From Escherichia phage FL38: DNA of 64,000 nt. Below, in pieces: positions 11,534 to 59,774 of this stretch. Location: sequence record PP400784; one strand, given 5' to 3'. The stretch's first letter is position 1. Every line of letters starts with the position of its first letter. A program made the position numbers and the translations under genes. A model generated the notes under the pieces. That model was not told the DNA's origin. It made no database searches and saw nothing but the letters and a program-made list of their open reading frames with translations.

Positions 11534-11562
11534 ATTGTAGGGGATCGGCGATCCCCTGTCAA
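11534..11562 (-). promoter_or_regulatory. early promoter TTGACA-[GGGGATCGCCGATCCCC]-TACAAT; the 17-nt spacer is a palindrome with two GATC sites
   Basis: Palindrome at 11540-11556; drives 11347..11502. Confidence 0.6.
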
Positions 11563-11572
11563 CAACTATTTT

Positions 11573-11785
11573 TTAATTTTTACCCGCTCGTGCATTAATA
11601 CGCATTTTCTGAATAGCCATGATCTGGCTTACTGCTTCTTCTTTACGTTCTTGCGTGATAACGTGACCAGATTCCGCAAACTCTCCCGCAACTTCTTCTA
11701 CGATCTCGCGAACTTGAGAACGTCCAAAGATGCGGTTTCCTTCGTAGCTCATAAACTCGGTTACTACTTGCTCGATAGATTTCAT
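11573..11785 (-). CDS. hypothetical protein, 70 aa
   Basis: ATG at 11785 with AAGGAGAATCAC upstream. Confidence 0.4.
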   Translation of the reverse strand: MKSIEQVVTEFMSYEGNRIFGRSQVREIVEEVAGEFAESGHVITQERKEEAVSQIMAIQKMRINARAGKN

Positions 11786-11815
11786 GTGATTCTCCTTTCG
11801 TTTCGGTGTGGGAGT

Positions 11816-11844
11816 ATGTTAATACTCCCATTTCTTTACGTCAA
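11816..11844 (-). promoter_or_regulatory. early promoter TTGACG-N17-TAACAT with inverted repeat GGGAGTAT/ATACTCCC
   Basis: Drives 11573..11785. Confidence 0.55.
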
Positions 11845-11851
11845 CCAGTTT

Positions 11852-12094
11852 TTAGAAATTTTTCGCTTCTTCTTCGGTCATCATCACCGCGCATTCGTGC
11901 ATAACTTTGAAAACCGGATCAATCATATCGAATGCTTCGCGGGACAGTTTACGAGAAGCGATTTTGATTGCTTCTACGTCTTCTACTACAGGAACAAAAA
12001 CAGTTTTCAGTTCATCGAGAACGGCAGCTTCTTTTTCATTCAGGAAGATACCAGCGTCATACAGTGCAACTTCGATAACATTAACTTTAACCAT
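11852..12094 (-). CDS. hypothetical protein, 80 aa
   Basis: ATG at 12094 with GGAGGAATTAAA upstream. Confidence 0.4.
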   Translation of the reverse strand: MVKVNVIEVALYDAGIFLNEKEAAVLDELKTVFVPVVEDVEAIKIASRKLSREAFDMIDPVFKVMHECAVMMTEEEAKNF

Positions 12095-12127
12095 TTTAAT
12101 TCCTCCAGTTCGTTTAGGTATGGGAGT

Positions 12128-12156
12128 ATAATACTACCGATGACCTTTGGCGTCAA
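12128..12156 (-). promoter_or_regulatory. early promoter TTGACG-N17-TATTAT
   Basis: Drives 11852..12094. Confidence 0.5.
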
Positions 12157-12358
12157 CTGCTTTTTTATTATTTTCGTGAAAATTTTTCGTCGCCTCATGT
12201 GCTTTTCGCTGGGCTTCTTGTTGTGCTTGCTGGCGTGCTGCCTCTTGTGAAGCCATAACGGAAGCATTTGCAGCAGTTACAGCCGCTACCATCGCTGCGG
12301 TATTAGCATTTACAGTACATGCACTAGCCAGCAAAGCAATTGCAATCATTTTCTTCAT
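12134..12358 (-). CDS. small secreted protein or lipoprotein, 74 aa
   Basis: ATG at 12358; N-terminal signal peptide MKKMIAIALLASACTVNA, then a Q/A-rich helical region. Confidence 0.45.
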   Translation of the reverse strand: MKKMIAIALLASACTVNANTAAMVAAVTAANASVMASQEAARQQAQQEAQRKAHEATKNFHENNKKAVDAKGHR

Positions 12359-12525
12359 AGTTTCCCCTTTAGGTTATCTTCGACCTTCACCCATTCCGCG
12401 TATTCTTGCGCGGCTACTTTCGGATTTAGTCCGTCTTCGTACATTGCTTCAAGTAATGCTTCGTCGGTGGGCTTATACCCTAGATAAGCCTCCACCTGAT
12501 TTTTCCAAATTTTATACCAGTTCAT
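12355..12525 (-). CDS. hypothetical protein, about 56 aa
   Basis: Start moved to the in-frame ATG at 12525 (GGTGA upstream), just after the upstream gene's stop. Confidence 0.3.
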   Translation of the reverse strand: MNWYKIWKNQVEAYLGYKPTDEALLEAMYEDGLNPKVAAQEYAEWVKVEDNLKGKL

Positions 12526-12529
12526 ATTA

Positions 12530-12802
12530 TCACCAGTCAAGAGCGCGTGTCTCTGCGTCTTCCCATGCTTGATCCATAACAGCCTTGAAAACATATTCTA
12601 AAGTATCATCTTTAGAGAATCCGAAGACCTTAGACGGAATATCTTCAATTGCTACTCCCGCGACTTCTGCATTACGCGCTTGGCAATAATGCAACTCTAA
12701 GTTATCGAGATAGCGACCGCCTAATTTCTCCATATCATCCCAGCATTTCCAGTAACCTACTTTATTTGCAATCGCTAACACCTTGCTGTTTTCGTTGTTC
12801 AT
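12530..12802 (-). CDS. hypothetical protein, 90 aa
   Basis: ATG at 12802 preceded by AAGGAGAATCAAAG; own promoter. Confidence 0.4.
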   Translation of the reverse strand: MNNENSKVLAIANKVGYWKCWDDMEKLGGRYLDNLELHYCQARNAEVAGVAIEDIPSKVFGFSKDDTLEYVFKAVMDQAWEDAETRALDW

Positions 12803-12833
12803 CTTTGATTCTCCTTTTGTTTGGTATGTGTGT

Positions 12834-12862
12834 ATTATGCAATGATGGATTTGTGAAGTCAA
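12834..12862 (-). promoter_or_regulatory. early promoter TTGACT-N17-CATAAT
   Basis: Drives 12530..12802. Confidence 0.5.
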
Positions 12863-12870
12863 CAACTTTT

Positions 12871-12902: not shown

Positions 12903-12912
12903 TAATAATCAG

Positions 12913-17103: not shown

Positions 17104-19212
17104 TTAAAATTTAACATTCTTAACCAGTTTCATAAAGTCTTGTGCGCGTTTGTCATTATGCAGAATACGATACCAGTTATCTACAATATCATACAGTAAC
17201 GGGCTATTCTCTTTAAACTTCGCACAAACTGCTTTAATTCGTTCGTTTGCTACCGTGAATTTTTCATCACAAATCTTTTTAGTTTCTTCGTCCATAATCC
17301 AACGAGTACGAAGGAGTAACTTGGAAACCTCTTTATTATAATGACGACCGTACAGTCTGTCAATAAATTCTGGAACACAGCGTTCTAGTTCATCGTCATG
17401 AAACAACATAGTGATCACACCCAGATATTCGCCATACCCCAGATGATTGGTCTTAACCTTCTTAGCCAGACCAGCCAGCTTACCGCGAACAAATTCTAGC
17501 GCACATTCCAATTGTTCGTCAACGAGATATTTTTGTGTCTCGTTTCGAGTAATAATATACTTTGTTACCCCGAAGTAGTCAAGCGCCGTGTGTAATGTAT
17601 TTTCACTATGGATCGATTTACGACTACGGCTTTCGAATGAATCACCTACGCGGAACATGTGCAAGCCTGATAACTCGCGAATCTCTGCCGCTTTCATGTG
17701 ATGGCTGGTTTTATTCCAACTGTCACCAATCTTTTCCATGATATACACGTTAGGCAGCTTAGGAGTCGCTTCACGTTGTGTACGCTCGGTCTTCTCCGGT
17801 TTAACTGCTTTAGCACGCAGATCATCGGCCTCAGAAACTTTAATCACGGTCATTTCAGAATCATCATAATACTGTTTGATGTACTCGAAAGTTTCCATAT
17901 GTTTTTCGTTGCGCTGACGGAACACCAATACCTTTTTATTGATTCCGTATTCCTGGACCATGCCGTTAAGAGTCAGTGCACGCAGTTTCGGTTTATCGGT
18001 ATCATCAATAAGACACGTAATATCTTCTTTATGCATCCATACAAAATGCGTAATGTTGTATTGACTGCTAACGAAAGCAGGGCGCAATTTACTGATTGTG
18101 TTACGAGTACGATATAGAGTATACACCTGACCTTCTACGTCATTTGGCGAATCTTTACCCGCATTCACAAACTTATTATAGATTGCTACCGGATCATCCC
18201 ACTGCCCGATCTTACCCATCTTGCTAATAATATTGCGTTGAGTCGATGAATACTCGCTCATAAATTGCGCAAGTTTACGCTCTGTTTTAATGTTGGCGAT
18301 CTTCTCTTTAACCTTTTCCAACATCATTTCATTGATTTCTGCAATACGTTTTTCGATGTTCGCTTTAGTCTCAATTGACAAGTGAACTTCTTCACGCGAT
18401 GGCATCAGGTCCAGATCACCCAACTCAAAATTAATGTAAATGGTCTGGTGCTGGCGGTTTACAGCTTCTAACCATGTTCCGCGAACATATTCATACGGGA
18501 TCGGATACTGGATCTTACCCATGATTGCATATACTACATAGGAATCGTTATCACGCCCATTACAAACATAATAATTATCAAAGCTAGGGAAATAATTAAT
18601 TTCGATTGCATTGATATTAGGTTTGTGTTCCCCAAAATGACGCAGTACAAATTGCGCTTCTCGATGCCATGTCTGAATGTCTTTTTCTTTCACTGGAATA
18701 GTGATTTTCAGACCATTGTCTTCATAGGTCGGTTCGTCGAAAATCTGCACCATTTTCGGCATAGAGTTTTGCACAAATGCCGTAAAGCCATAAGCGCGAC
18801 CATTGTAATAGTTTACGATTGTAAAGGTGTCAGTGTAGCTATAAGCAGATTTCGCACCTAAACCAAAAGACCCGATATAGTCATTAGTCTGGTCTTTTGT
18901 TGATTCAAAGTAAACCGTAAACAGTTGTTCTAATTCTTTCTTAGACGGAATACCAGTACCATAATCACGCACAGAAAAATACGGTTCGATTGCAGTCGGT
19001 AAATGAATATCAAACGGACGATCTAAGGTTCCGGCTTCTTTGTGAGTGTCGGTAGCATTGCACGAATACTCACGGACGCAAGCACGCTCACAATATTGAT
19101 AAGTGTTCTTAGAAAGCACCATAAAAGCCTTGCTACTTGCTTTCAGTGAAAAATCAACCGCACCGCTCAGGTCACTGCCAAATACTTCTTCATTATCAAT
19201 ATGCATTTTCAT
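17104..19212 (-). CDS. rIIA: rIIA protein (GHKL-type ATPase fold)
   Basis: 702 aa; ATP-lid motif GSFGLGAKSAYSYTDTFTI matches remembered T4 rIIA (GGFGLGSKSPFSYTDTFSI); RDYGTGI G1 box; adjacent to rIIB. Confidence 0.85.
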   Translation of the reverse strand: MKMHIDNEEVFGSDLSGAVDFSLKASSKAFMVLSKNTYQYCERACVREYSCNATDTHKEAGTLDRPFDIHLPTAIEPYFSVRDYGTGIPSKKELEQLFTVYFESTKDQTNDYIGSFGLGAKSAYSYTDTFTIVNYYNGRAYGFTAFVQNSMPKMVQIFDEPTYEDNGLKITIPVKEKDIQTWHREAQFVLRHFGEHKPNINAIEINYFPSFDNYYVCNGRDNDSYVVYAIMGKIQYPIPYEYVRGTWLEAVNRQHQTIYINFELGDLDLMPSREEVHLSIETKANIEKRIAEINEMMLEKVKEKIANIKTERKLAQFMSEYSSTQRNIISKMGKIGQWDDPVAIYNKFVNAGKDSPNDVEGQVYTLYRTRNTISKLRPAFVSSQYNITHFVWMHKEDITCLIDDTDKPKLRALTLNGMVQEYGINKKVLVFRQRNEKHMETFEYIKQYYDDSEMTVIKVSEADDLRAKAVKPEKTERTQREATPKLPNVYIMEKIGDSWNKTSHHMKAAEIRELSGLHMFRVGDSFESRSRKSIHSENTLHTALDYFGVTKYIITRNETQKYLVDEQLECALEFVRGKLAGLAKKVKTNHLGYGEYLGVITMLFHDDELERCVPEFIDRLYGRHYNKEVSKLLLRTRWIMDEETKKICDEKFTVANERIKAVCAKFKENSPLLYDIVDNWYRILHNDKRAQDFMKLVKNVKF

Positions 19213-19907: not shown

Positions 19908-19936
19908 ATTATGATATATCCCCGATCCAGTGTCAA
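19908..19936 (-). promoter_or_regulatory. early promoter TTGACA-N17-CATAAT with GGGGA..TCCCC inverted repeat over the -10
   Basis: Drives 19683..19877. Confidence 0.55.
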
Positions 19937-32824: not shown

Positions 32825-33052
32825 CTATTCAGTTAATCCGTAATACTTTAATTGCTTCATTGTTATTCGATCTTTGTAGTGCTCTTGAATTAACTTTTTC
32901 ATCGCATCAACATCGATCGTCACAAATACTTCGTTGCTGTGATTTCCGTGAACTTTCTTGAAATGCTCTATGCCTTCCTCACGTTCACGTTTAATCTTTT
33001 CAATTTCTCTCATAGTATATTTCTCACGTTGGCGGGTATCGTCACCCAACAC
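32825..33052 (-). CDS. hypothetical protein, 75 aa
   Basis: The only ORF between uvsX and gene 43, where T4 carries beta-gt, gene 42 and imm. Confidence 0.35.
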   Translation of the reverse strand: MLGDDTRQREKYTMREIEKIKREREEGIEHFKKVHGNHSNEVFVTIDVDAMKKLIQEHYKDRITMKQLKYYGLTE

Positions 33053-33074
33053 CCGCCATTATACACACTTTATC

Positions 33075-35753
33075 TTAAATGTCAAACAGGTCTGTAAGAG
33101 ATGCCACTTTTTCATATTGCAGCTTTGCAGCCGTGGTAATGTTCTCCAGTGGTTTGACGAAAGTCTTATTAAACAACAAAGGCCAGTCTAACCACTTTAA
33201 CACCTCTGATTCAATTTCTGGAGGAATACGAGTACCGGACAACCAACCAAAACAGATTTCTCCAAACGGATTTCGATCTTTCAGCGGTACAATCATAACC
33301 TTCTCGCCTTCACGAATCGGATCTAGTCCGAATTTTCGAGCATTACGATTATAACACAATACACTCTTAACCGCATACGGACAACCCTTAATCGGATACC
33401 CGTTTGAATCGCTGTATTTCTGTAGGTTGTTTGCAGATGATACCGCAGCAACATCAAGATAGTCAAGTTTTCTAAATTCTTGCTCAAAAATACCGTAGTA
33501 TTCCTGCAATGACTCTTCACCTTCCTGCAACATACGGCGAATACATTCTTTCAGTGATTTCTGACATGCTTTAGGGGTGGAGCTACGTTGCGTTTCCAAG
33601 CCCATGATTTTTAGCTTAGGTTCAGCAAAGCGCGTTCCTTCCATATCCCAAACATTAAGAGCATAACGCTTTTTACCAGTCCAGAATCCACCGATACCCG
33701 CAGATTTCAATGGAGGACCAGCAATTGCCTCACGGTCCATAAACATCAAGTGCTCATAGTTGTTCATGTACTCGCATAACTCGCGATATCCCTTGTCGAT
33801 AATAGGTTCCATTCGATGTTTACCGAAATTATCAAGGAAGTCAACAAGTTTTTCGGTATCGTCGAAACGGTCTTCCCCGCCAACCTTATCAACAACATTG
33901 TTAACCAGCACATAAACGGAGTCAGTATCACAATAACGAACATATGCAAAATCGGTTGTTCCACAAAGCTCGTTTAAGTATTCGTTAATCTTACGCTCAA
34001 TCCACTGAATTGCAAGCTGACCAAACAAGGTGATCGCACTAGCGTTACGGAGATCATAAAAACGGAATTTAGGATTCCCCAACGCACCATAAAGGGAGTT
34101 GATCAAAACTTTACGAGAAAGCTGGTTTGTATTGCACAAGATCGACTCGTCTTTACATTCTTCCAGCAATTTCTCTAAGGCATCTTTACTTAATTCAGAA
34201 AGCATCGATTTAAACGCTTCATCAAAGTCGTGACGCACTTCAACGCTATAGTTAATGGTTCCTCCATAAACATGATTTTCATCGTGTAGAATCGCTTTAC
34301 AGAGTTCAGCATTGCGATCACATGCCAACATCATGTTTTTGTACTGCTTACGCTGATCGAATACCTTTTTAATCTCAATCGGTACGATACCGTGAATATC
34401 TTTTCTATACATCCATCCGTTAGGCGAGCAAGAATACTCATCACTCGGACGTGGTGCAGTTTTATTGATATACTCGTGCATCGGTGCAGCATCAAAAGAT
34501 CCAGCGATTGTTTCAGGCGAAATATTAACCTGTCGAATAATAGATGGGTACAGACTTGTTAAGTCAAAGCTCATCATCCAACGGTAAGCATTCGGCACAG
34601 GTTCTTTTACGAATGCGCCTGGATACGTCTGCTTAGGCTGTATCTTATTTTCCGGTACTACTTTACCCTCAGCTTTCAGAGATCCGAAGATAATAGCATC
34701 CCACACTTTCATCGGGTTATAAACATGGTTAAATTTAATCTTTGCATAGAAACATAGACTATACACCAGATCGATAAATCCACGCTTTTTATCAATCGCC
34801 AGAACACGATCAACGTCGCCGATGTTATAATCGATGTAAAGTTGATGGTTGTCATCACGCAATTTCTTTAACGGACCATCATAATCAACCTTACCGATTC
34901 CTGTCTCATATTCAGCAACATAATCTAATGCATATGTTGGTTGAGTCGTAAAGCTAAATTTCTTGTACAGGTCAATATAATCAAGGCTTTCGATCCCCAT
35001 GATCGTAAATGCTTCACGCTCGTTGCCAAAATCATCCTGTGAGATTCGGGATTTAATCTTACCGCACGGGCTTAGACGGTTAGCGGTTCTACTTCCGAAC
35101 TTATTACTGATACGTTTAATGATATATGGAATATCGAATGTTTCTGTGTTCCAGCCAGTGAAACCAACGGGTCGGTTTTCCTCAAAGAATCGGATGTATT
35201 CTAACAGCAATTCATCTTCTGTGTCATAGACGTTATAAACAACGCGCTCTACAATATCAGGTCGAAGAATAGACTTGCTAGATTCCCAGATTTCACCGTT
35301 TTTTCCTTTCAAATCAAATACAAAGAAACGATCATGTACGGAATCATAATGCGTAATTGCATCGATAGGATATTTCGCTTCTTCTGGTTTAGGAAATTCT
35401 GGGGCAGTGACCTCGATATCAACCCATGCTACACGGATTTTATTTCGGTCATATCGAATCTCTCCTTTATACGTATCAGACAGATAGGAGATGATAAAAT
35501 CATCCATCCCTAGCGCCTCTTGCCCCATTTCTCCCATCTTTTTACGCCATTTGTTGGCCTCGTTCATAGAGGGGAATTTTTTAGCAATGCAAGGCTTGCC
35601 ATAGATATCTTTATAATTCGTAACCATACCAGGCGCGGCATGATGAAATAAAGTTGGCGTATATTCAACGTAACGCTCTTGTTCTTGTCCAGCATCATCA
35701 ATATAACGCTCGTAGATCTTATCACCTACTCGCTCACATGACAGAAAATACAT
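33075..35753 (-). CDS. 43: DNA polymerase (gp43), family B with 3'-5' exonuclease
   Basis: Colinear match to remembered T4/RB69 gp43 (DIE, SFDLTSLYPSIIRQVNISPET, LINSLYGALGN, YCDTDS, KKRYALNV); start set to ATG 35753 after AAGGAG. Confidence 0.95.
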   Translation of the reverse strand: MYFLSCERVGDKIYERYIDDAGQEQERYVEYTPTLFHHAAPGMVTNYKDIYGKPCIAKKFPSMNEANKWRKKMGEMGQEALGMDDFIISYLSDTYKGEIRYDRNKIRVAWVDIEVTAPEFPKPEEAKYPIDAITHYDSVHDRFFVFDLKGKNGEIWESSKSILRPDIVERVVYNVYDTEDELLLEYIRFFEENRPVGFTGWNTETFDIPYIIKRISNKFGSRTANRLSPCGKIKSRISQDDFGNEREAFTIMGIESLDYIDLYKKFSFTTQPTYALDYVAEYETGIGKVDYDGPLKKLRDDNHQLYIDYNIGDVDRVLAIDKKRGFIDLVYSLCFYAKIKFNHVYNPMKVWDAIIFGSLKAEGKVVPENKIQPKQTYPGAFVKEPVPNAYRWMMSFDLTSLYPSIIRQVNISPETIAGSFDAAPMHEYINKTAPRPSDEYSCSPNGWMYRKDIHGIVPIEIKKVFDQRKQYKNMMLACDRNAELCKAILHDENHVYGGTINYSVEVRHDFDEAFKSMLSELSKDALEKLLEECKDESILCNTNQLSRKVLINSLYGALGNPKFRFYDLRNASAITLFGQLAIQWIERKINEYLNELCGTTDFAYVRYCDTDSVYVLVNNVVDKVGGEDRFDDTEKLVDFLDNFGKHRMEPIIDKGYRELCEYMNNYEHLMFMDREAIAGPPLKSAGIGGFWTGKKRYALNVWDMEGTRFAEPKLKIMGLETQRSSTPKACQKSLKECIRRMLQEGEESLQEYYGIFEQEFRKLDYLDVAAVSSANNLQKYSDSNGYPIKGCPYAVKSVLCYNRNARKFGLDPIREGEKVMIVPLKDRNPFGEICFGWLSGTRIPPEIESEVLKWLDWPLLFNKTFVKPLENITTAAKLQYEKVASLTDLFDI

Positions 35754-35785: not shown

Positions 35786-35814
35786 ATTATAGGGGAATCG
35801 ACTTAGTTTGTCAA
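35786..35814 (-). promoter_or_regulatory. sigma70-type promoter TTGACA-N17-TATAAT upstream of gene 43, flanked by inverted repeat ATAGGGG/CCCCTAT
   Basis: Perfect consensus hexamers read on the minus strand. Confidence 0.65.
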
Positions 35815-35835
35815 TACCCCTATCCCATCAGTATC

Positions 35836-38508: not shown

Positions 38509-38535
38509 ATCACCTTTATCATGTTAATCAATTAA

Positions 38536-38934
38536 TTACGGGTTTACTGCGTGTTCGTTACGAATCTTGAGCATTTTGTTTTGGAAGTTTTCCGCAGCTT
38601 GCTCATCAATAGCATGAGTATACTTAAATCCAATGTATGCTGTCAAGTATTGTTGCAGAGCATAGACAGTAACAGGATTCTTTGCGGTCTTCTTGCCTTC
38701 GAGATATATCAGATCACCACGAACATCAAACGCAAGTTTACGACGAATCACATTATCAACAAACTCATCAACAACAAAATGCCAAATGTTGCTATCGGTT
38801 CCAATATCAAAATTAATCACACAGCCTTGTTTGACATAATCAAACGGTATCGGGAATAGTTTATAGTCAAGTTCGATAAACATTAATTGTTCTTTTAAGC
38901 TCATACGTTTCATTCTATCACTTCCCATCAGCAA
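38536..38934 (-). CDS. hypothetical protein, 132 aa (rpbA position)
   Basis: Position between gene 45 and gene 46 and similar size to T4 RpbA; no sequence confirmation. Confidence 0.35.
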   Translation of the reverse strand: MLMGSDRMKRMSLKEQLMFIELDYKLFPIPFDYVKQGCVINFDIGTDSNIWHFVVDEFVDNVIRRKLAFDVRGDLIYLEGKKTAKNPVTVYALQQYLTAYIGFKYTHAIDEQAAENFQNKMLKIRNEHAVNP

Positions 38935-42603: not shown

Positions 42604-42632
42604 AGTATAACGGGGATTTCTCCCCGCGTCAA
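42604..42632 (-). promoter_or_regulatory. early promoter TTGACG-[CGGGGA-gaaa-TCCCCG]-TATACT, palindromic spacer
   Basis: Starts directly after the gp47 stop; drives 42327..42578. Confidence 0.55.
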
Positions 42633-44828: not shown

Positions 44829-46298
44829 CTATTCCCCATTACCATTATACTTTCTTTGCTTAGTTATCCACACTCTAACCATCTCTACAGATTCGCCGTC
44901 AGACGGATCAAGAGTTTTTCCTTTTTTCTTCATGCGGTACTTAAATCCGTTAAATCTTGCATTCTCTTGCTCGTTAAAGTCGAACATCTTTTTAAATGAT
45001 TTTCGCCCTTTACGTTCACCACATTCTAGCGGAATCATTCGATCTGTTATTACATTGGCATTAGGCAGAAACGTTTTTAGATAATCCACCAACGCCCAAT
45101 CAGGAACATATAGATTAACATTCTCCTTGCTCTCGTTGTCTCTCAGGTTACAACGCAAACATAATTGAAATGCTGGTTCCAGATAATCAGACACATGACG
45201 CGCTTTCAAAAACTCGTTTGTCGGGAGATCACAACTATTAGCAAGACCTTTTAAAATATCAATCTCCCATCGTTGAGGGTTAAAGCTGAACATCACAGCA
45301 ACATTTTTATGATGAATGTAAGAGTTAAGACCATAAGACCCGTAAGGTATCCGCTCACCAATACCATTTGTACACGCTTCACGGTCCCGATTCACGGTAT
45401 AAATGAAGTCATCGCCACATTCATTTTTAACCATATCAACAAGACGTTCAAAGGTATTGTTTGTTTCTGACTGGTGACGCGACCATCGTTCAGAGTCCGT
45501 CATAAGGATGATATTAACTCTATCTGTATTTTTATACTCTTTGAAATATAGTCTGGATTCTAGCGCACTCGGAACAAAATCGCAATTTGCATAGTATCGT
45601 AGATACTTCCCACTATATGTATCAAAGAGATTTGCACATGCTATCGTAACCTTTTTAAAGTCTCCCCACGTACCGTGTTTGTTATCGTTCAAGAAAACAA
45701 TTTTCGACCCATTCTTCCGGTGTCCTTCGTTATGTTTTACCATAACGTTGATTTTCTTCTCTAATAACGCCTCATAAAGCCCTCTAAGAGAAGAATCGAT
45801 CATATCAGTACCATCCTTCGCACTTTCTATCTTTTCTTTGATAGCGGCCTTCTCAGAGTCTTTTAGAACTAAGTTCTGTAGGCATTCCGATTCGTCGGCG
45901 ATTGGTTCGCAATGCTTCGTGATAAGTTCAAGATTAGACTTAAACGGATACTCATTAAATTCAACCAGTTGAGGAACTTCATCAATGTAAAGAGCATAAT
46001 CACCAAACATTTTTGAACGTTCCATATTAGATAACGCTGTATGTGTAATGAATATCACATCAGCACCATCTTTAACTGATTGCATTATCGACGCTTGCAC
46101 TGTCTTAAGGCTTCTTAGTCTTGTGCTATCAATCAAGACAGCACGACCGCCCATTCTTTTAAACTTATTGTAAGATTGTTCACTTAAAACACGAGATGGC
46201 GAAGCAATAACCGCTTTTTCTTTTGTCTCTAGGACGTGGGAAAGTATAGCATCAGTTTTCCCCGCCGCTGGCAATGCGATTAATGTTTCAATCTTCAT
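44829..46298 (-). CDS. P-loop NTPase of unknown function, 489 aa
   Basis: ATG 46298 with AAGGG upstream; Walker A LPAAGKTD at residues 9-16, motif-Ia-like SPSRVL, Walker B/DExx YIDEVP about 95 aa later; no canonical helicase motifs beyond that. Confidence 0.5.
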   Translation of the reverse strand: MKIETLIALPAAGKTDAILSHVLETKEKAVIASPSRVLSEQSYNKFKRMGGRAVLIDSTRLRSLKTVQASIMQSVKDGADVIFITHTALSNMERSKMFGDYALYIDEVPQLVEFNEYPFKSNLELITKHCEPIADESECLQNLVLKDSEKAAIKEKIESAKDGTDMIDSSLRGLYEALLEKKINVMVKHNEGHRKNGSKIVFLNDNKHGTWGDFKKVTIACANLFDTYSGKYLRYYANCDFVPSALESRLYFKEYKNTDRVNIILMTDSERWSRHQSETNNTFERLVDMVKNECGDDFIYTVNRDREACTNGIGERIPYGSYGLNSYIHHKNVAVMFSFNPQRWEIDILKGLANSCDLPTNEFLKARHVSDYLEPAFQLCLRCNLRDNESKENVNLYVPDWALVDYLKTFLPNANVITDRMIPLECGERKGRKSFKKMFDFNEQENARFNGFKYRMKKKGKTLDPSDGESVEMVRVWITKQRKYNGNGE

Positions 46299-48335: not shown

Positions 48336-48821
48336 TTAACCGATTTTATCAAGTTCGTTTAATGCTTTCTCTGCTTCCTGTATAGCTTGCACCCTTTCCG
48401 GCATTTTGTCAAGAAAATCTTTCAACTCTTCAAAACTGGAGATATGACGCAATGCGTTAGCACCGATAGCCGCATGTGATTTGCATTCAAAGCGGATTTT
48501 ATAATTATCCATCGCCAATTTGAGAAGGTCTATTAGATCATATTCATGACCAGGCAATAAAACTTCTTTGAAGCACGCTCGGTCGCCATCGGAAAACCAT
48601 ATATTATCACCAACATCGATAGAACTAATATAATCCCCTTCGTGATTATAGATTGAACGTACATTACCCCAACGGTCTACCGTAGCGACAGTAAATGGTT
48701 TATCTAGATATGTAAACACACCATCAATATTAGGTTTTTGTTCGTAACGCCAACAATCACGCAAAATGCGCTTTTCGTCCTCACCAACCAACTTATATGT
48801 CTTCCCTTCTTCCCATTTCAT
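48336..48821 (-). CDS. paralog family member, about 161 aa
   Basis: Starts MKWEEGKTYKL at ATG 48821; coiled-coil C-terminus. Confidence 0.45.
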   Translation of the reverse strand: MKWEEGKTYKLVGEDEKRILRDCWRYEQKPNIDGVFTYLDKPFTVATVDRWGNVRSIYNHEGDYISSIDVGDNIWFSDGDRACFKEVLLPGHEYDLIDLLKLAMDNYKIRFECKSHAAIGANALRHISSFEELKDFLDKMPERVQAIQEAEKALNELDKIG

Positions 48822-48825
48822 AATA

Positions 48826-49353
48826 TCATCTCTCATTTTTGATACGTGATTCTAATTGGATCATACGGTCGCGCGTTTGTTTGTATTCTCGGATAGCACC
48901 GATCCGGCTAGGCATACCATCCAGTACGCTCTTAATACCTTCTAGGGTAGTGATTTTAGCAATGCTATTATGCAACCCCATCTTATCGATCAACTGAATG
49001 TCGTAGGCTTCCATAAGCAGACCCAGACGTTCTAAAGTTAGGTCTTCTTCTTTTTCTTCAGAATCTGGAATCTTAGGTTCAATAATAACTTCGGTAAAGA
49101 AACGACGCTCACCCGACCAAAACCACACACCGGAACAGCCAATAGGGGATTCTTTTAACGTCATAGAGTCGAAATCACTACCGATAATAGTAATTTCTCT
49201 AACATCACCATCATCGTCAATGTCTTCTACCCTAAACGGGCGACCAGCCAACAAGTCAACAATACATCTGTTAATAGACGACGAAAATTTAGTCAGTTCG
49301 GCTTTCGACGCTTCGCATTCAATCTTGTAAGTTTTACCAACTTCCCATTCCAT
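48826..49353 (-). CDS. paralog family member, about 175 aa
   Basis: Starts MEWEVGKTYKI at ATG 49353 (GAGGTGA upstream); coiled-coil C-terminus. Confidence 0.45.
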   Translation of the reverse strand: MEWEVGKTYKIECEASKAELTKFSSSINRCIVDLLAGRPFRVEDIDDDGDVREITIIGSDFDSMTLKESPIGCSGVWFWSGERRFFTEVIIEPKIPDSEEKEEDLTLERLGLLMEAYDIQLIDKMGLHNSIAKITTLEGIKSVLDGMPSRIGAIREYKQTRDRMIQLESRIKNER

Positions 49354-49363: not shown

Positions 49364-49873
49364 TCAAATAATTTTCACTGGAATACTATTAACAATCTTG
49401 TATTGTACTTGATTGTCAGATCCCCGCCACGGCTTCTTCGTTGGCATATCTTTAATATAACGCCCATCGATGAACATGTCAACTGATTCTACAATTTTTC
49501 TTTGCTCATCATTCAATTGGTCAAGGGTATAACCGGACCATAGCCAAATATCTTTATTTGGCATCCATGATTTTACTTCATCGATGATCCGCTGTACACC
49601 CTTTAAATTGCGTTTATACAGTGGATCGCCACCTAAGAATGTTAGCCCCTGAATAAAATCAGGTCTAAGCAGATCCAGAATCAATCCCATTGTATCATCG
49701 GTGAATGGTTCCCCGTTCTTAGGATTGAGTAGGCTAGCATTAAAGCAACCATCACATGCATGTGAACATCCGGTAACGTAAAGGGAGACTCTCACTCCCT
49801 CACCGTTAACCATATCACAATCTTTAATATCGGCATAGCGTAGTTTGCCGTATGTATCAGAACTCATATTCAA
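49364..49873 (-). CDS. nrdG: anaerobic ribonucleotide reductase activating protein NrdG (radical SAM)
   Basis: CxxxCxxC cluster (GCSHACDGC); 169 aa; close to nrdD. Confidence 0.85.
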   Translation of the reverse strand: MNMSSDTYGKLRYADIKDCDMVNGEGVRVSLYVTGCSHACDGCFNASLLNPKNGEPFTDDTMGLILDLLRPDFIQGLTFLGGDPLYKRNLKGVQRIIDEVKSWMPNKDIWLWSGYTLDQLNDEQRKIVESVDMFIDGRYIKDMPTKKPWRGSDNQVQYKIVNSIPVKII

Positions 49874-50009
49874 TTACCCCGAACTCGTTTACAATCTGCG
49901 CTTTATAGTAACCACCGCGAGATGCTAATAGATAAGCTGGGCTTAGGTATTCGTATTCACGGATTTCTACTTGTGCGTTTTCAGTTTCCCAAATCAGTAA
50001 AGTCCACAT
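49857..50009 (-). CDS. hypothetical small protein, about 50 aa
   Basis: Start moved to ATG 50009 after AGGAGAATCAAAT; overlaps the nrdG start by 17 nt. Confidence 0.3.
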   Translation of the reverse strand: MWTLLIWETENAQVEIREYEYLSPAYLLASRGGYYKAQIVNEFGVIEYEF

Positions 50010-50051
50010 ATTTGATTCTCCTGTAAAGTTGTATCTCGTCTTGATGAATAT

Positions 50052-50080
50052 AGTATAGGGGATCTCGCGATCCCCGTCAA
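50052..50080 (-). promoter_or_regulatory. early promoter TTGAC-[GGGGATC-TCGC-GATCCCC]-TATACT, palindromic spacer with two GATC sites
   Basis: Palindrome at 50058-50075; drives 49857..50009 and nrdG. Confidence 0.55.
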
Positions 50081-50084
50081 GCAT

Positions 50085-51198: not shown

Positions 51199-51226
51199 AT
51201 TATACATTAGCTAATCATGTTGTCAA
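51199..51226 (-). promoter_or_regulatory. early promoter TTGACA-N16-TATAAT
   Basis: Drives 50630..51169. Confidence 0.6.
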
Positions 51227-51232
51227 CACCCC

Positions 51233-51264
51233 AAAACGAAAAAGCCGACCCTTTCGGATCGGCT
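51233..51264 (-). terminator. rho-independent terminator after nrdD
   Basis: AGCCGA-(10 nt)-TCGGCT followed by a U-run. Confidence 0.75.
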
Positions 51265-53671: not shown

Positions 53672-53701
53672 AATATAATCCTCTCGTTGTTAAGTGGGAG
53701 T

Positions 53702-53729
53702 ATTATAGCATACTCCCTTCGCATGTCAA
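53702..53729 (-). promoter_or_regulatory. early promoter TTGACA-N16-TATAAT with inverted repeat GGGAGTA/TACTCCC around the -10
   Basis: The -35 overlaps the stop of the upstream gene; drives 53177..53671. Confidence 0.6.
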
Positions 53730-54904: not shown

Positions 54905-54935
54905 AATATAATCCTCTCGTTGTTTAGATGGGAGT

Positions 54936-54964
54936 ATCTTACTACTCCCGTTTCATCATGTCAA
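54936..54964 (-). promoter_or_regulatory. early promoter TTGACA-N17-TAAGAT with inverted repeat GGGAGTA/TACTCCC
   Basis: Nearly identical cassette to those at 11306-11340 and 55840-55874. Confidence 0.6.
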
Positions 54965-55814: not shown

Positions 55815-55845
55815 TGTTGATTCTCCTTCTTGATTAGATGGGAGT

Positions 55846-55874
55846 ATTTTACTACTCCCATTTCTTATTGTCAA
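55846..55874 (-). promoter_or_regulatory. early promoter TTGACA-N17-TAAAAT with inverted repeat GGGAGTA/TACTCCC
   Basis: Immediately downstream of the gp49 stop. Confidence 0.6.
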
Positions 55875-56657: not shown

Positions 56658-56665
56658 GTTATACC

Positions 56666-57478
56666 TCAATCTACGTTAGTTACATAAACTTCTTGTGTAT
56701 CAGAAGACTTGCCACCTGAACGATCTAGGCAATAGGTCTTATTCAACAGGACGCAGTTTAAATCATTCCGCTTGATAAAGTCAAGAAGATGATCATTTAC
56801 CTTTCCCTTATGATGTGTGACATTACTGATACCAAACTGAAAACCACGCGCCATAATAGATTCTACCCACTGATAGAATTTAATCTCTTCCTCGTCACTC
56901 CAGAACTTATTATATTCCGCAGAAGTGATAAGGTACGGCGGGTCCAAATAAACGAAATCACCCGGCAAGATCTCGATCTCGTCATAACGACCAGACGTAA
57001 AACTGATTCGACCGTCTTTGTTTTCTTCCTTAAAATTCAGGACACGCTCTACCGCGTTTTCGTTAAAAGTCCGGCGACCAAAATTAGCATTAAATTCGCC
57101 CTTCCGGTTATGACGGTTAATGTTGCTAAAACTATGCTGAATCAACACAAACAGCGATAGCGGATCTGGATTCTCGTTATACTTCTTGCGGAATGCCATA
57201 TAAGAATCTTTATCATCACGAGACAAACCATTTTCGGCAATAATCCTCTTGATCATAAAAACCGGATCAGGACACTCATCAATGGCCTTGTAAGCGTCAA
57301 TTAAGCGGTGATCATAGTCATTAGCCAGCACATCCCCTTCGACGTACAGAGACACGCTCAAGCCACCACAAAAGGCATCGACAAAGCGGTTATAGTGCTT
57401 AGGGAAATACTTACTAACACCAGGCAATAACTTTTCCTTATTGCCCGTATAGGGAATTAAACCTAATGCTTTCTTCAT
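56666..57478 (-). CDS. dam: DNA adenine methyltransferase (Dam, GATC-specific N6-adenine MTase)
   Basis: 270 aa; SAM motif DAFCGGLS and catalytic DPPY (YLDPPYL) in Dam order; T4 Dam is of similar size. Confidence 0.8.
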   Translation of the reverse strand: MKKALGLIPYTGNKEKLLPGVSKYFPKHYNRFVDAFCGGLSVSLYVEGDVLANDYDHRLIDAYKAIDECPDPVFMIKRIIAENGLSRDDKDSYMAFRKKYNENPDPLSLFVLIQHSFSNINRHNRKGEFNANFGRRTFNENAVERVLNFKEENKDGRISFTSGRYDEIEILPGDFVYLDPPYLITSAEYNKFWSDEEEIKFYQWVESIMARGFQFGISNVTHHKGKVNDHLLDFIKRNDLNCVLLNKTYCLDRSGGKSSDTQEVYVTNVD

Positions 57479-57912: not shown

Positions 57913-57919
57913 ATAATCC

Positions 57920-58216
57920 TCATATCTCAGAGAATAGAATCTCTGTTAATCGTACTGACTGCTCTCTGAATGTTAGCGTATACTCGAAAGGAAAGTCAAC
58001 ACCTAATTTCATAAGAGAATAGCCTACCGCCTCTTTATGCTTGTCTGTTAGGGCAATCCTAACCAATTCCCGTTGAATCTCTTTAGGCGGTGAATGGATA
58101 GTAACACGGGTATCGTGCAATGTCCAGTCACCATTACGAATCAAGATTAACGGTTTATCGTCATTGAAGATCACCGACCCCTTTCCGGTCGGTGAGTGTT
58201 TTATACTAATCATCAA
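57920..58216 (-). CDS. hypothetical protein, 98 aa
   Basis: Track ORF. Confidence 0.35.
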   Translation of the reverse strand: MMISIKHSPTGKGSVIFNDDKPLILIRNGDWTLHDTRVTIHSPPKEIQRELVRIALTDKHKEAVGYSLMKLGVDFPFEYTLTFREQSVRLTEILFSEI

Positions 58217-58427
58217 ACTCTAAGAAATATTCTGGAACGATATACCCGTTAAAGTCATTGCACTTATAAAAGTGTGGTGCATTTAATGCTGGATGAGCAT
58301 TAGTAAAGAGTTTACCCTCTAGAAACAGAATGTAATTAATAGGTCTAATACCTACAGAATCAGGGTCTAAACCTTTTTCTTTCAGTTCAGCCAGCGTTAA
58401 AACTCGTCCAGATCGTAACTTAGCCAT
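58206..58427 (-). CDS. hypothetical protein, 73 aa
   Basis: Track ORF. Confidence 0.3.
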   Translation of the reverse strand: MAKLRSGRVLTLAELKEKGLDPDSVGIRPINYILFLEGKLFTNAHPALNAPHFYKCNDFNGYIVPEYFLEFDD

Positions 58428-58713
58428 GATTTACCCCTAATTCATCAAGATTATGTCTCAGCATTTCAGAGTATTTTTCTACTTCCTTGATCTTAGTGTG
58501 GATCTCCACGATCTCATCTTCACTATCAGATAGTTTAATGGCAATAGCGAGCGTGCTTTTACCAGCTTTCATAGTCTCTTTCCGTTCAACCAATAGATCC
58601 GCGTGTTTCAATAGCAATTCTTCACGTCGAACATAAGCGACGGTCAAAGCCTCATCAGCGATTTCTAAAGCATTTTCAGCGACACCAACAACCATTTTAC
58701 GAGTAGACAGCAT
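58420..58713 (-). CDS. hypothetical protein, 97 aa
   Basis: Track ORF. Confidence 0.35.
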   Translation of the reverse strand: MLSTRKMVVGVAENALEIADEALTVAYVRREELLLKHADLLVERKETMKAGKSTLAIAIKLSDSEDEIVEIHTKIKEVEKYSEMLRHNLDELGVNHG

Positions 58714-58727
58714 AAATTCACCTCACA

Positions 58728-59036
58728 TTATTTCACGTTAACGCCGTTATCAATCCAGCCGACGCTATTTGGTTTAACAGTTTTACCATAGGATGCATAC
58801 TTAATCAAGCATGGTTTAACATCATTATCAAATCTTCCTAAACGTACTCCCAAATCAGGAATATCCATGTATGCGGCTTTATATCCCCATGTACCGTATT
58901 CAGAATCAATCTCAACCGGACGGCCTTTAAAAGCATACACTACACCGTGACGGTCAACGATAACATAGCGATAGCCAGCCGGAAGATACACAGTTTCGCC
59001 GTAAACTTTAACTGGAGTAGCAGAAGAGATAAACAT
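58728..59036 (-). CDS. hypothetical protein, 102 aa
   Basis: ATG 59036 after GAGGATTATATT; own promoter. Confidence 0.4.
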   Translation of the reverse strand: MFISSATPVKVYGETVYLPAGYRYVIVDRHGVVYAFKGRPVEIDSEYGTWGYKAAYMDIPDLGVRLGRFDNDVKPCLIKYASYGKTVKPNSVGWIDNGVNVK

Positions 59037-59070
59037 AATATAATCCTCACATCGTTCATTTGATGCGGTT

Positions 59071-59099
59071 ATTATATGATAACCGCATTTTCATGTCAA
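59071..59099 (-). promoter_or_regulatory. early promoter TTGACA-N17-TATAAT with inverted repeat GCGGTTAT/ATAACCGC around the -10
   Basis: Drives 58728..59036. Confidence 0.6.
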
Positions 59100-59105
59100 C
59101 AGTTT

Positions 59106-59480
59106 TTAAAAATCTTCTTCCGGTTTATATCGACCGTCGTCTTCTTGTTTTGGAGTAAATCCTTTATGCGTGCGCGGCTTCGCTTCCGGTTTACCCGCGA
59201 TCGATAGTCCAAGCCATTTAAGAAGTTTGTATGAGTAAGCGATGATCACAACTACCCACGTTAAAGGCCATACAATAGAACAAATGGCATATGCTCCAGT
59301 ATCGACCGCTTTGGTGTCCTTGTCGAATCTGGCGTATAAGCAAATTATAAGATAGGTGATCATTGCACCAGTAGGCCAGATATAAAGCACATTAACAATA
59401 TCTTGTGTTGTCAAATTGTCCTCCTTACATGTCTTGCAGTGCATAAAAGCATTTTTCTTCGTAGTCATAGAAAATGTCAA
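59106..59480 (-). CDS. small membrane protein, up to 124 aa
   Basis: Long hydrophobic segments; true start probably internal because the 5' part overlaps the upstream gene. Confidence 0.35.
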   Translation of the reverse strand: MTFSMTTKKNAFMHCKTCKEDNLTTQDIVNVLYIWPTGAMITYLIICLYARFDKDTKAVDTGAYAICSIVWPLTWVVVIIAYSYKLLKWLGLSIAGKPEAKPRTHKGFTPKQEDDGRYKPEEDF

Positions 59481-59703
59481 AGTATGCTTTTTCTACATAC
59501 TCGCCATTGATCCAAGCGGCAGTAACAATCAGAGTGGTCCAGGTAGATCCGCTCTCAACGGTAAAGGTTTTAATACCCAGCTTCGCTGCCAAGTCGAACG
59601 CAAACCGGACGCAACCACGACAGGAAGTGATGTTGGAAGTTTTGATTTTAAAGCCACCGCGAGTTTTAGAAATTTCTACTTTAGCGAAAGACAGGTTGCT
59701 CAT
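59425..59703 (-). CDS. hypothetical protein, 92 aa
   Basis: Start set to ATG 59703 after AAGGAGAATCAAA; the track ORF begins at GTG inside the promoter. Confidence 0.4.
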   Translation of the reverse strand: MSNLSFAKVEISKTRGGFKIKTSNITSCRGCVRFAFDLAAKLGIKTFTVESGSTWTTLIVTAAWINGEYVEKAYFDIFYDYEEKCFYALQDM

Positions 59704-59745
59704 TTTGATTCTCCTTAAGAAAGTGTGTTTCGTTTTGATGTGTGT

Positions 59746-59774
59746 AGTATAGGGGATCACCGATCCCCTGTCAA
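59746..59774 (-). promoter_or_regulatory. early promoter TTGACA-[GGGGATC-ACC-GATCCCC]-TATACT, palindromic spacer with two GATC sites
   Basis: Palindrome at 59752-59768; near-identical to the cassette at 11534-11562. Confidence 0.6.

Follow-up and report, generated by a model that had tools for sequence, protein, structure and literature searches.

The window analysed here is a stretch of 64,000 nucleotides from Escherichia phage FL38 (PP400784). It belongs to Krischvirus and shares 95-99% identity with RB49, phi1 and about 56 further records of that genus. A sequence-only reading had placed palindromes of the form GGGGATC-N3/4-GATCCCC at 11540-11556, 50058-50075 and 59752-59768, and a check of the sequence located one at each position. 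Searching the window for GGGGATC-N2-6-GATCCCC returned exactly these three matches, with none in 100 dinucleotide-preserving shuffles. At all three sites the palindrome is flanked by -35 and -10 hexamers on the minus strand, which bears out the proposal of early sigma70-type promoters with a GC-clamped palindromic spacer (Table 1). All three promoters are intergenic, the 25 nt upstream of each are 72-84% A+T, and 31-42 nt beyond each lies the GGAGAATCAA-ATG of a small gene. The spacer had also been described as a perfect palindrome over its whole length, which holds for the 7-bp arms, perfect inverted repeats that reach 8 bp at sites 1 and 3 if flanking A/T is counted, and fails for the centres GGT and GCGA, which are not palindromic. 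Nor is the palindrome confined to the spacer at site 2, the counterpart of the RB49p054/p053 intergenic region, where the final base of the -35 hexamer is also the first of the stem.

The window also encodes the predicted Dam methyltransferase, a minus-strand ORF with a match to the Pfam D12 N6-adenine methyltransferase family (1e-29) and with T4 Dam as its best solved relative (3e-65, full length). Every Krischvirus relative found carries dam, so that these genomes provide no natural contrast for Dam dependence. Further promoter-hairpin elements are present, among them the GATC-less palindrome CGGGGAGAAATCCCCG at 42611-42626 and the GC-clamp inverted repeats ATAGGGG (35823-35817) and CCCCTAT (35795-35789) near the gene 43 promoter, both as the earlier reading had it. 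Inspection of the sequence revealed another hairpin after gene 43 (33057-33031); PeSLs, the cassette type described below, are reported to border g43 (PMC2839356). A single GATC beside a G-run occurs in a few other spacers, such as CTGGATCGGGG at 19936.

Table 1. Promoter-hairpin elements, small downstream genes and dam in the window.
Feature	Coordinates	Strand	Details
PeSL site 1	11534..11562	-	-35 TTGACA 11562-11557; spacer and palindrome GGGGATCGCCGATCCCC 11556-11540, two GATC; -10 TACAAT 11539-11534
Small gene, 51 aa, MKHTHKLMVKF...	11347..11502	-	Function unknown; predicted to be driven by site 1; SD GGAG; ATG 11502-11500
PeSL site 2	50052..50080	-	-35 TTGACG 50080-50075; GGGATCGCGAGATCCCC; palindrome GGGGATC-GCGA-GATCCCC 50075-50058, two GATC, sense-strand loop GNRA; -10 TATACT 50057-50052
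Small gene, 50 aa, MWTLLIWETEN...	49857..50009	-	Predicted to be driven by site 2; ATG 50009-50007; immediately upstream of nrdG
PeSL site 3	59746..59774	-	-35 TTGACA 59774-59769; GGGGATCGGTGATCCCC; palindrome GGGGATC-GGT-GATCCCC 59768-59752, two GATC; -10 TATACT 59751-59746
Small gene, 92 aa, MSNLSFAKVE...	59425..59703	-	Predicted to be driven by site 3; ATG 59703-59701
PeSL, spacer-hairpin class without GATC	42604..42632	-	TTGACG, CGGGGA-GAAA-TCCCCG (42626-42611), TATACT
PeSL, -10-overlapping class	11306..11340	-	TTGACA ... GGGAGTAG-TAAGAT-ACTCCC; -10 hexamer enclosed by hairpin
PeSL, -10-overlapping class	53696..53729	-	GGGAGTATGC-TATAAT-ACTCCC
PeSL, -10-overlapping class	54930..54964	-	GGGAGTAG-TAAGAT-ACTCCC
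PeSL, -10-overlapping class	55838..55874	-	ATGGGAGTAG-TAAAAT-ACTCCCAT
PeSL, -10-overlapping class	59063..59099	-	ATGCGGTTATCA-TATAAT-AACCGCAT; consensus TTGACA-17-TATAAT
Gene 43 promoter	35786..35823	-	TTGACA-17-TATAAT inside inverted repeat ATAGGGG ... CCCCTAT
Promoter after gene 43	33031..33085	-	TTGACA-16-TATAAT; hairpin GGCGGGT...ACCCGCC directly downstream of -10
T4-type Dam (GATC N6-adenine methyltransferase), 270 aa	56666..57478	-	Pfam D12 and T4 Dam matches

PeSLs (promoter-early stem-loops) by definition combine a promoter matching the sigma70 consensus with AT-rich sequence upstream of it and a polyG/polyC stem-loop, mostly located between -35 and -10, and they are intergenic and upstream of ORFans (PMC2839356). 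The window sites have all of these features. The best explanation as a whole, to which we assign a probability of about 85%, is that the three sites form one paralogous subfamily of PeSLs, the promoter/terminator cassettes of RB49-like phages (Krischvirus). The match to the elements of RB49 and phi1 (Arbiol et al. 2010, PMC2839356; Comeau et al. 2014, PMC4122927) is complete and within the same genus, comprising TTGACA-N17-TATAAT, the AT-rich upstream region, Gn-loop-Cn between -35 and -10, an intergenic location upstream of ORFans and a role as recombination junctions, with no structural difference. Analogues rather than homologues are the PeSLs of PST/T4 and nt-1/KVP40 and the promoter-associated stem-loops at the T-even internal-protein loci, which combine promoter, hairpin and variable gene cassettes in the same design but use promoters of the types TTTACW... 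and TTGYVH... and stems of the types AGNA-loop-TCNT and A3-4G3-loop-C3T3-4 (PMC4122927).

GGGGATC-type spacers occur in the RB49 and phi1 records at PeSL206/205, at the cassette upstream of ORF210 and at PeSL210/209, and two of the PeSLs assayed in PMC2839356 carry them. PeSL206/205 reads TTGACA-GGGGATCGGTGATCCCC-TATAAT in the RB49 record, with a spacer identical to that of site 3, and GGGGATCACCGATCCCC in phi1. Without infection or any phage factor, it was reported to act in E. coli as a very strong promoter, at about 13,000 Miller units for a single wild-type clone; nearly all other clones isolated had mutations in the -35 or -10 hexamer (PMC2839356). PeSL211/210 is the one-GATC variant GGGGATCACGTATCCCC in RB49, and its phi1 counterpart, upstream of ORF210 in a record that has no ORF211, is GGGGATCGGTGATCCCC. 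Termination by the PeSL211/210 stem-loop, the single one assayed, was comparable to that by rrnB T1 (PMC2839356). Family membership, sequence anatomy, conservation pattern and recombination junctions are observed in the present analysis, and we infer that the three window copies act like the assayed GGGGATC-type elements in promoter strength and terminator activity.

The sense-strand four-base loops are GNRA tetraloops (GAAA, GCGA and GGGA), which points to an RNA hairpin; the non-GNRA flip TCGC appears in one genome only. For site 1, the RNA hairpin was calculated at -16.3 kcal/mol for a 61-nt context (z = -4.2). The suggestion that the palindromes act as attenuating hairpins in read-through transcripts agrees with the published, experimentally backed reading of the PeSL class (PMC2839356). 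The elements share two features with Rho-independent terminators, a 7-8 bp GC-rich stem closed by a tri- or tetraloop and a location at the 3' end of the gene upstream, and one hairpin of the family was reported, as noted above, to terminate as well as rrnB T1. Unlike such terminators, they lack a U-tract: no T-run follows the hairpin at any of the three sites, the stem is followed by the -10 hexamer (UAUACU or UACAAU), and a consensus terminator scan calls none of them. Termination, if it occurs, would take place without a canonical U-tract, with the A/U-rich -10 hexamer directly after the stem.

We also considered whether GATC is itself the selected feature. Because GATC is its own reverse complement, a copy in one arm of an inverted repeat forces a second in the other, and the two sites per palindrome are not independent events. 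Across the genome GATC is neither avoided nor enriched (362 sites, observed/expected 1.02). The proposed count of GATC in promoter spacers did exceed chance, by 3.3-3.6x, but the excess comes entirely from one paralogous family: the window spacers hold 9 against 2.6 expected and, without the GGGGATC family, 3 against 2.4, and the spacers of a whole related genome hold 20 against 5.6 and, without it, 8 against 5.0. The most enriched spacer tetramers are instead GGGG, GGGA, CCCC and TCCC, at 6.5-18x. Both GATCs are kept at site 2 in 11/11 sources and at site 1 in all 6 sources that have the cassette, whereas the second GATC of site 3 is lost in 5/11 relatives. Relatives also differ in the hairpin that precedes one shared gene, which is of the GATC type in some and lacks GATC in others. 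The complete relative OZ035808 has 11 spacer-hairpin PeSLs, with the stems GGGGATC (5), GGGGAT with one GATC (2), GGGGAG (2) and (G)CGGGGA (2); between GGGGAT..ATCCCC and GGGGAG..CTCCCC, the sixth stem pair changes from T-A to G-C, which is compensatory. The comparison was widened to 54 distinct TTGACA-GGGG-N9/10-CCCC-TA spacers found on IMG/VR viral contigs, most of them not from Krischvirus. Their three inner positions are paired 57% of the time (92/162) versus 27% in a shuffle control (43.5 +/- 5.6 of 162), and eight different inner triplets occur, with ATC in Krischvirus only. A weak selective preference for GATC may exist, since GGGGATC is the commonest spacer-hairpin type (5-7/11 in one genome) and sites 1 and 2 keep both GATCs.

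The GGGGA...TCCCC inverted repeat could alternatively be the site of a dimeric phage protein, either one repressing early promoters or one that acts in recombination and is directed to PeSLs, the latter a speculation of the PeSL authors themselves (PMC2839356). A GGGG...CCCC core common to all spacer-hairpin families and to many other hairpins in these genomes would suit such a protein, as would the demonstrable role of PeSLs as recombination junctions. We nevertheless consider this unlikely: depending on the family, the half-sites are separated by as little as 4 or as much as 8 bp, unlike a fixed-geometry operator, the classes differ in where the hairpin lies with respect to the hexamers, and the inner positions of the stem show covariation, not conservation. 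Furthermore, the GNRA loops are an RNA-level signature, the measured promoter and terminator activities required no phage proteins, and no candidate protein was identified.

The sequence-only reading had suggested regulation by Dam. Under such a scheme the spacer GATCs would be fully methylated when the DNA is injected and hemimethylated or unmethylated just after replication, and this change would alter binding of RNA polymerase or SeqA and so tune or shut off early promoters, possibly with feedback on phage dam, which lies about 2.3 kb downstream of site 3. Two GATCs 7-8 bp apart in each of the three promoters, a phage-encoded T4-type Dam, unmodified cytosines in RB49 DNA (PMC4041780), the spacer enrichment and the retention of both GATCs at sites 1 and 2 in all relatives examined are compatible with it. 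Any self-complementary tetramer placed in an inverted repeat is, however, bound to occur as a pair, and the family origin of the enrichment, the losses at site 3, the one-GATC stem-loop of the assayed RB49 terminator and the interchange of hairpin types argue against a methylation switch, which we regard as very unlikely. In E. coli, moreover, local Dam-site methylation generally leaves local transcription unaltered (PMC12369378). Neither PMC2839356 nor PMC4122927 mentions GATC, Dam or methylation. The sites resemble the Dam-sensitive promoters IS10 transposase pIN, dnaA P2, pap and agn43 in having GATC in a promoter of a Dam-methylated genome, but in the window both GATCs of a site are confined to the spacer, leave the -35 and -10 hexamers untouched, are inconsistently conserved and have no known regulator. 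In classical cases, GATC overlaps a hexamer or the site of a regulator such as Lrp or OxyR. A spacing of 7-8 bp also puts the pair on different helical faces, which would be suboptimal for SeqA, and the promoter with the site 3 spacer was reported as very strong in DH5alpha, a dam+ strain. The GATCs are probably functionally neutral.

Extrusion of the palindrome as a supercoil-sensing DNA cruciform that switches the promoter off or on is highly improbable, for although the inverted repeat fills the whole spacer and flipped loops indicate DNA-level palindrome behaviour at least occasionally, arms of 7-8 bp with 3-4-nt centres are short for extrusion in vivo, the flips are rare evolutionary events that template switching during replication can produce, and a cruciform would not impose the strand-specific GNRA bias.

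The loop flips are an observation in their own right: between relatives, hairpin loops change to their exact reverse complement with the stem unchanged, and we found no description of this for PeSLs in the literature. Minute inversions, in which a loop flip-flops between short inverted repeats, are familiar from chloroplast non-coding DNA and viral terminal hairpins. The GGGGATC palindromes are similar in that their loops occur in both orientations among close relatives; the flip here is a side observation and not the function of the element. Recombination at the cassette itself is evident in LF73P4, in which the gene after site 1 is missing, the junction falls right after TTGACA, exactly at the PeSL, and site 1 is fused to the next PeSL (11306..11340, the recombination partner). 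Relatives also vary in the type of hairpin found upstream of the MNFNE gene.

As PeSLs, the three sites would work as follows. The near-consensus sigma70 promoter with its A-rich upstream element would fire on host RNA polymerase right after infection and drive the small downstream gene. The 17-bp spacer holds the G-clamped hairpin, which would lie outside the transcript begun at that promoter and be transcribed only by polymerases coming from the upstream gene, whose transcript the very stable RNA hairpin would end or attenuate and probably stabilise at its 3' end, which would insulate neighbouring gene cassettes. The conserved 60-90 bp cassette could also serve as a homology patch for recombination by which small genes are inserted, deleted or swapped. 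The two GATCs would follow from the subfamily stem happening to be GGGGATC; along with the 350-odd others in the window, they are probable substrates of host and phage Dam and would have no dedicated regulatory role.

The cassette type is already described and partly tested in RB49-like coliphages and is hence a known element; PMC2839356 and PMC4122927 describe neither the GATC content of its GGGGATC subfamily nor the loop flips. Taken together, we conclude that the conserved trait is the hairpin and not GATC, and that the paired Dam sites seem to be a side effect of one variant of the hairpin rather than a methylation switch.

The sequence-only reading had described three perfect palindromes with two GATC sites each in early-promoter spacers, and all three were borne out at the positions listed in the table below, which defines sites 1-3. 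The pattern GGGGATC-N2-6-GATCCCC matched three times in the window and zero times in 100 dinucleotide-preserving shuffles, which rules out a chance origin of the palindromes. On the minus strand, which is the coding strand of all genes here, the palindromes occupy the spacers of near-consensus sigma70 promoters (TTGACA-N17-TATAAT), with hexamers that match the consensus at 10-11 of 12 positions and a spacer of 17 bp. An A-rich stretch (72-84% A+T over 25 nt) lies upstream of each promoter, the upstream ORFs stop 5-17 nt before the -35 hexamer, and GGAGAATCAA-ATG follows 31-42 nt past the -10 hexamer, at the head of genes for hypothetical proteins of 50-92 aa. The stems are perfect over 7-8 bp, and folding of their 61-nt contexts gave energies of -13.8 to -16.3 kcal/mol, with z from -2.4 to -4.2. 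The GATCs lie at spacer positions 4-7 and 11-14, or, at site 2, at positions 3-6 and 11-14. In some GenBank records, the gene after site 2 appears as a 75-aa ORF with its start upstream of the promoter (e.g., Sf20 38445-38672 and Skers 39773-40000), which places the palindrome in the "translated" sequence (…DGDREIP…). The RB49 and kaaroe records give a 50-aa version whose start lies past the Shine-Dalgarno sequence, and the 75-aa version is probably an annotation artefact.

Coordinates of promoters, hairpins, and associated genes in the window. Palindromes are given on the plus strand.
Feature	Coordinates	Strand	Palindrome	Sequence or remark
Site 1 promoter	11534..11562	-	GGGGATCGGCGATCCCC, 11540-11556	TTGACA-GGGGATCGCCGATCCCC-TACAAT
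Site 2 promoter	50052..50080	-	GGGGATCTCGCGATCCCC, 50058-50075	TTGACG-GGGATCGCGAGATCCCC-TATACT; last G of -35 shared with stem
Site 3 promoter	59746..59774	-	GGGGATCACCGATCCCC, 59752-59768	TTGACA-GGGGATCGGTGATCCCC-TATACT
Spacer hairpin without GATC	42604..42632	-	42611-42626	
Hairpins enclosing the -10 hexamer	11306-11340; 53696-53729; 54930-54964; 55838-55874; 59063-59099			no GATC in stem
Promoters with a single GATC near the spacer 5' end	19936-19908; 46643-46614; 63023-62995			
Terminator followed by promoter	51199-51264	-		AGCCGATCCGAAAGGGTCGGCT then TTTTCGTTTT; promoter TTGACA-16-TATAAT at 51226-51199
Gene after site 2, 75-aa version	49857-50084			
dam	56666-57478	-		

The window comes from a Krischvirus (RB49/phi1-like T4-type coliphages) and shares 95-99% identity with 58 GenBank records; RB49 DNA contains ordinary cytosines (PMC4041780). 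Arbiol et al. (2010) reported that the RB49 and phi1 genomes each have about 50 repeated motifs, the promoter-early stem-loops (PeSLs), which are intergenic and mostly lie before ORFans of hyperplastic regions (PMC2839356). The RB49-type PeSL consists of Gn-loop-Cn with TTGACA-N17-TATAAT (Comeau et al., 2014; PMC4122927), and sites 1-3 have every structural feature of a PeSL. In PeSL naming, site 2 is PeSL054/053 and site 3 is PeSL071/070. In RB49, the ORF206/205 region contains TTGACA-GGGGATCGGTGATCCCC-TATAAT, with a spacer identical to that of site 3, the ORF211/210 region contains TTGACA-GGGGATCACGTATCCCC-TATACT, and the ORF210/209 region contains GGGGATCACCGATCCCC. The same three loci of phi1 contain GGGGATCACCGATCCCC (206/205), GGGGATCGGTGATCCCC (upstream of ORF210), and GGGGATCGGGAGATCCCC (210/209). 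In both phages, the cassettes before ORF210 and at 210/209 are thus of the GGGGATC type. PeSL206/205 and PeSL211/210 are among the loci assayed by lacZ: the PeSL206/205 promoter yielded ~13,000 Miller units from a single wild-type clone, mutations in the -35 or -10 hexamer were present in nearly all the remaining promoter clones isolated, and the PeSL211/210 stem-loop lowered downstream lacZ about as much as rrnB T1 (PMC2839356). The RB49 early-promoter consensus agrees with 5'-end mapping, and RB49 has neither MotA nor middle promoters (PMC1524935). Rfam returned no family match anywhere in the window. We conclude that the three sites are a rediscovery of a known, partly characterised element, and that the observation itself is correct and far from chance.

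Stems and GATCs were compared among PeSL copies and among relatives. The related phage OZ035808 contains 11 spacer-hairpin PeSLs: five have the GGGGATC stem with two GATCs, two have GGGGATCACGTATCCCC with one GATC, and two each have the GATC-free forms GGGGAG..CTCCCC and (G)CGGGGA-GAAA-TCCCCG(C). Stem pair 6 is T-A in the GGGGATC type and G-C in the GGGGAG type, a compensatory change by which the GATC is lost and the helix is kept. Orthologues were drawn from GenBank phage records because IMG/VR, queried with the genes adjoining sites 2 and 3, gave only two Krischvirus contigs. Site 2 had both GATCs in all 11 sources, as did site 1 in all six sources with the cassette, and the second GATC of site 3 was lost in 5 of 11 sources (GGGGATCACGTATCCCC in ECD7, LF73P4, Skers, and OZ035808; GGGGATCACATATCCCC in Sf20). 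Upstream of a shared gene named MNFNE for its first residues, the GGGGATC hairpin occurs in ECD7, phi1, RB49, and one metagenomic contig, and GATC-less forms occur in LF73P4 (GGGGAGGTTAAACTCCCC) and, shortened, in OZ035808 (GGGAGGTTAAACTCCCC). An IMG/VR scan with TTGACA-GGGG-N9/10-CCCC-TA, in which the G-clamp alone is fixed, yielded 54 different spacers, most of them on viral contigs without Krischvirus PeSL flanks. Pairing at the three inner positions of these spacers is seen in 92 of 162 cases, compared with 43.5 +/- 5.6 in shuffles, and eight different inner triplets occur, with ATC (and hence GATC) restricted to Krischvirus. Taken together, these results indicate that the selected feature is the helix and that GATC is one of several ways of building it.

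Two broader patterns were of little use. The bare GGGGATC-N3/4-GATCCCC was uninformative in IMG/VR, since the matches listed were unrelated contigs and a 14-base palindrome is expected by chance in so large a collection. The hairpin-agnostic TTGACR-N17-TAYAMT-N5-CATCAARAC matched at least 120 metagenomic loci, two of them Krischvirus among the matches listed; most promoters among the matches listed had no spacer hairpin, and the pattern is very generic and serves as background only. The related elements of the window that had been noted as GC-clamp repeats around gene 43 and as a GATC-less palindrome were both confirmed. The orthologue of the latter in kaaroe (~17890-17910) carries in its stem (CGTGGAGAAATCCCCG) a G-to-T change that is not compensated, which indicates that individual PeSL hairpins can decay. 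In a second PeSL class, with five members in the window, the hairpin encloses the -10 hexamer, in the form GGGAGTAG...ACTCCC or ATGCGGTTAT...AACCGCAT.

Each hairpin is situated before the transcription start of its own promoter. It can therefore become RNA only when transcription reads through from the upstream gene, and such RNA would form a 7-8 bp G-clamped stem. On the sense (transcribed) strand, the four-base loops of the spacer hairpins at site 2, at the GATC-less palindrome, and at related loci are all GNRA (GAAA, GCGA, and GGGA), with the sole exception of the reverse complement TCGC (RNA UCGC) in one genome. This strand specificity favours a function at the RNA level over a double-stranded operator or a cruciform and points to selection on the RNA hairpin; the compensatory stem changes, together with the GNRA loops, add support for a hairpin that acts as RNA. 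The stems of sites 1-3 are followed by no T-run, and a consensus terminator scan reported no site there. We therefore dropped the label "canonical intrinsic terminator" for these GC-rich hairpins without a U-tract; any termination would have to use the A/U-rich -10 hexamer after the stem. By analogy with the published assay of one family member, sites 1-3 may terminate transcription. A canonical terminator is present elsewhere on the minus strand of the window, with a consensus promoter directly after it. This arrangement follows the same terminator-then-promoter logic as a PeSL and differs in that its parts lie side by side. The proposal that a dimeric DNA-binding protein occupies the inverted repeat, which the PeSL authors raised for recombination (PMC2839356), is unlikely to account for the palindromes, as it fits poorly with half-sites spaced 4-8 bp apart, the shifting position of the hairpin, and covariation.

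The GATC pairs had led the sequence-only reading to propose that the promoters may be regulated by Dam. GATC occurs often in the window and without bias, at 362 sites and an observed/expected ratio of 1.02. Because GATC is self-complementary, any copy within one arm of an inverted repeat brings a second copy in the other arm, and the "paired Dam sites" therefore represent one event rather than two. We counted GATC in the spacers of candidate early promoters, defined by at most two hexamer mismatches, a Shine-Dalgarno sequence, and a downstream ORF. The 33 promoters of the window contained 9 compared with 2.6 expected, and the 70 promoters in each of the complete genomes of OZ035808 and LF73P4 contained 20 (5.6 expected) and 19 (5.7 expected), respectively. 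Without the GGGGATC family, the counts were 3 compared with 2.4 (p = 0.42), 8 compared with 5.0 (p = 0.14), and 8 compared with 5.2 (p = 0.16), which traces the enrichment to one paralogous family. The idea of GATC-rich spacers thus held for the promoters overall and failed once that family was set aside. The top-enriched spacer tetramers were GGGG, GGGA, CCCC, and TCCC at 6.5-18x, and GATC reached 3.3-3.6x. A single GATC near the spacer 5' end, often beside a G-run (CTGGATCGGGG, CCGGATCGGGG, GCGATCC, CCAGATCC), occurs in three other early promoters of the window and in OZ035808 at 33422, 34691, 46674, and 136322. Such spacers, which may be leftovers of exchange between PeSL types, lack statistical enrichment across the whole genome (8 against 5.0).

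The predicted Dam gene is a D12-class adenine methyltransferase, with T4 Dam as its closest solved relative (3e-65, full length), and the same gene is present in all related GenBank records among the matches listed. The dam-nrdC region of Sf20, GEC-3S, JSE, and a few more relatives contains an inserted gene for an HNH homing endonuclease (at 45246-46001 in Sf20, between dam and nrdC); the window has no such insertion. Control of the three promoters by Dam is unsupported and very improbable. The presence of GATC is its only positive evidence; all GATCs at sites 1-3 lie within the spacer and overlap neither the hexamers nor a known regulator site, site 3 can do without one of them, very strong activity in an ordinary laboratory host is on record for a promoter that has the same spacer, and local Dam methylation rarely alters local transcription in E. 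coli (PMC12369378). A literature search on RB49 and PeSLs with GATC and Dam found neither a link between PeSLs and methylation nor dam-minus data. We assign a probability of roughly 0.06 to the reading that the GATC pair is a methylation sensor, at ~5-7 early promoters per genome, that couples early ORFan expression to the replication state of the template. Injected DNA would be fully methylated and newly replicated DNA transiently hemi- or unmethylated, and this difference would alter the binding of RNA polymerase or SeqA, or the behaviour of the hairpin or cruciform, with a possible link to the dam gene that the phage itself carries downstream of site 3. Although both GATCs are kept at sites 1 and 2 in every relative examined, nothing in the present analysis speaks for a sensor. 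Because hairpin symmetry and common descent explain the paired sites, they provide no evidence of epigenetic control. Cruciform switching is the least credible reading, given the short arms and the strand-specific GNRA bias.

Comparison of close relatives indicates that the DNA of the palindromes is itself dynamic, through both recombination junctions and loop flips. LF73P4 (~49003-49100) is missing the small gene after site 1 (window 11347-11562 region), and the deletion junction lies directly after TTGACA, joined to the next PeSL, which is of the GGGAGTAGTAAGATACTCCC type found at window 11306-11340. In kaaroe (~48731-48930) the site-1 cassette is absent, and homology stops ~20 nt before the -35 hexamer and gives way to unrelated sequence. 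PeSLs thus form junctions between close relatives both at site 1 and at the MNFNE gene, where the hairpin type is swapped, and the cassette probably doubles as a recombination substrate; loss of the site-1 gene corresponds to the modular shuffling described for PeSLs (PMC2839356). The palindrome loops also occur in both orientations with unchanged stems. At site 2 the loop is GCGA in 10 sources and TCGC in OZ035808 (~39100), at PeSL206/205 it is GGT in RB49 (record 3700-3730), ECD7, and one metagenomic contig and ACC in phi1 (record 2560-2590), LF73P4, and OZ035808, and GCC as well as GGC were found at each of sites 1 and 3. An origin of exact reverse-complement loops by two to three simultaneous point mutations is unlikely (in the two clearest cases, roughly 1/54 and 1/27), and the pattern suggests loop inversion through a DNA hairpin, either by arm-to-arm exchange or by switching templated by the hairpin. 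Three-base loops could instead have been acquired by gene conversion from paralogues. Loop flips are mentioned in neither PeSL paper (Arbiol et al., 2010; Comeau et al., 2014).

PeSLs were described in 2010 as promoter/terminator cassettes that drive gene shuffling in T4-like phages. The copies in the window belong to the same PeSL subfamily as the assayed elements; as it stands, the finding matters little, and its useful outcomes are negative or incremental. Dam dependence, if ever demonstrated, would mean that a lytic phage couples the control of its early promoters to methylation, which would be rare.
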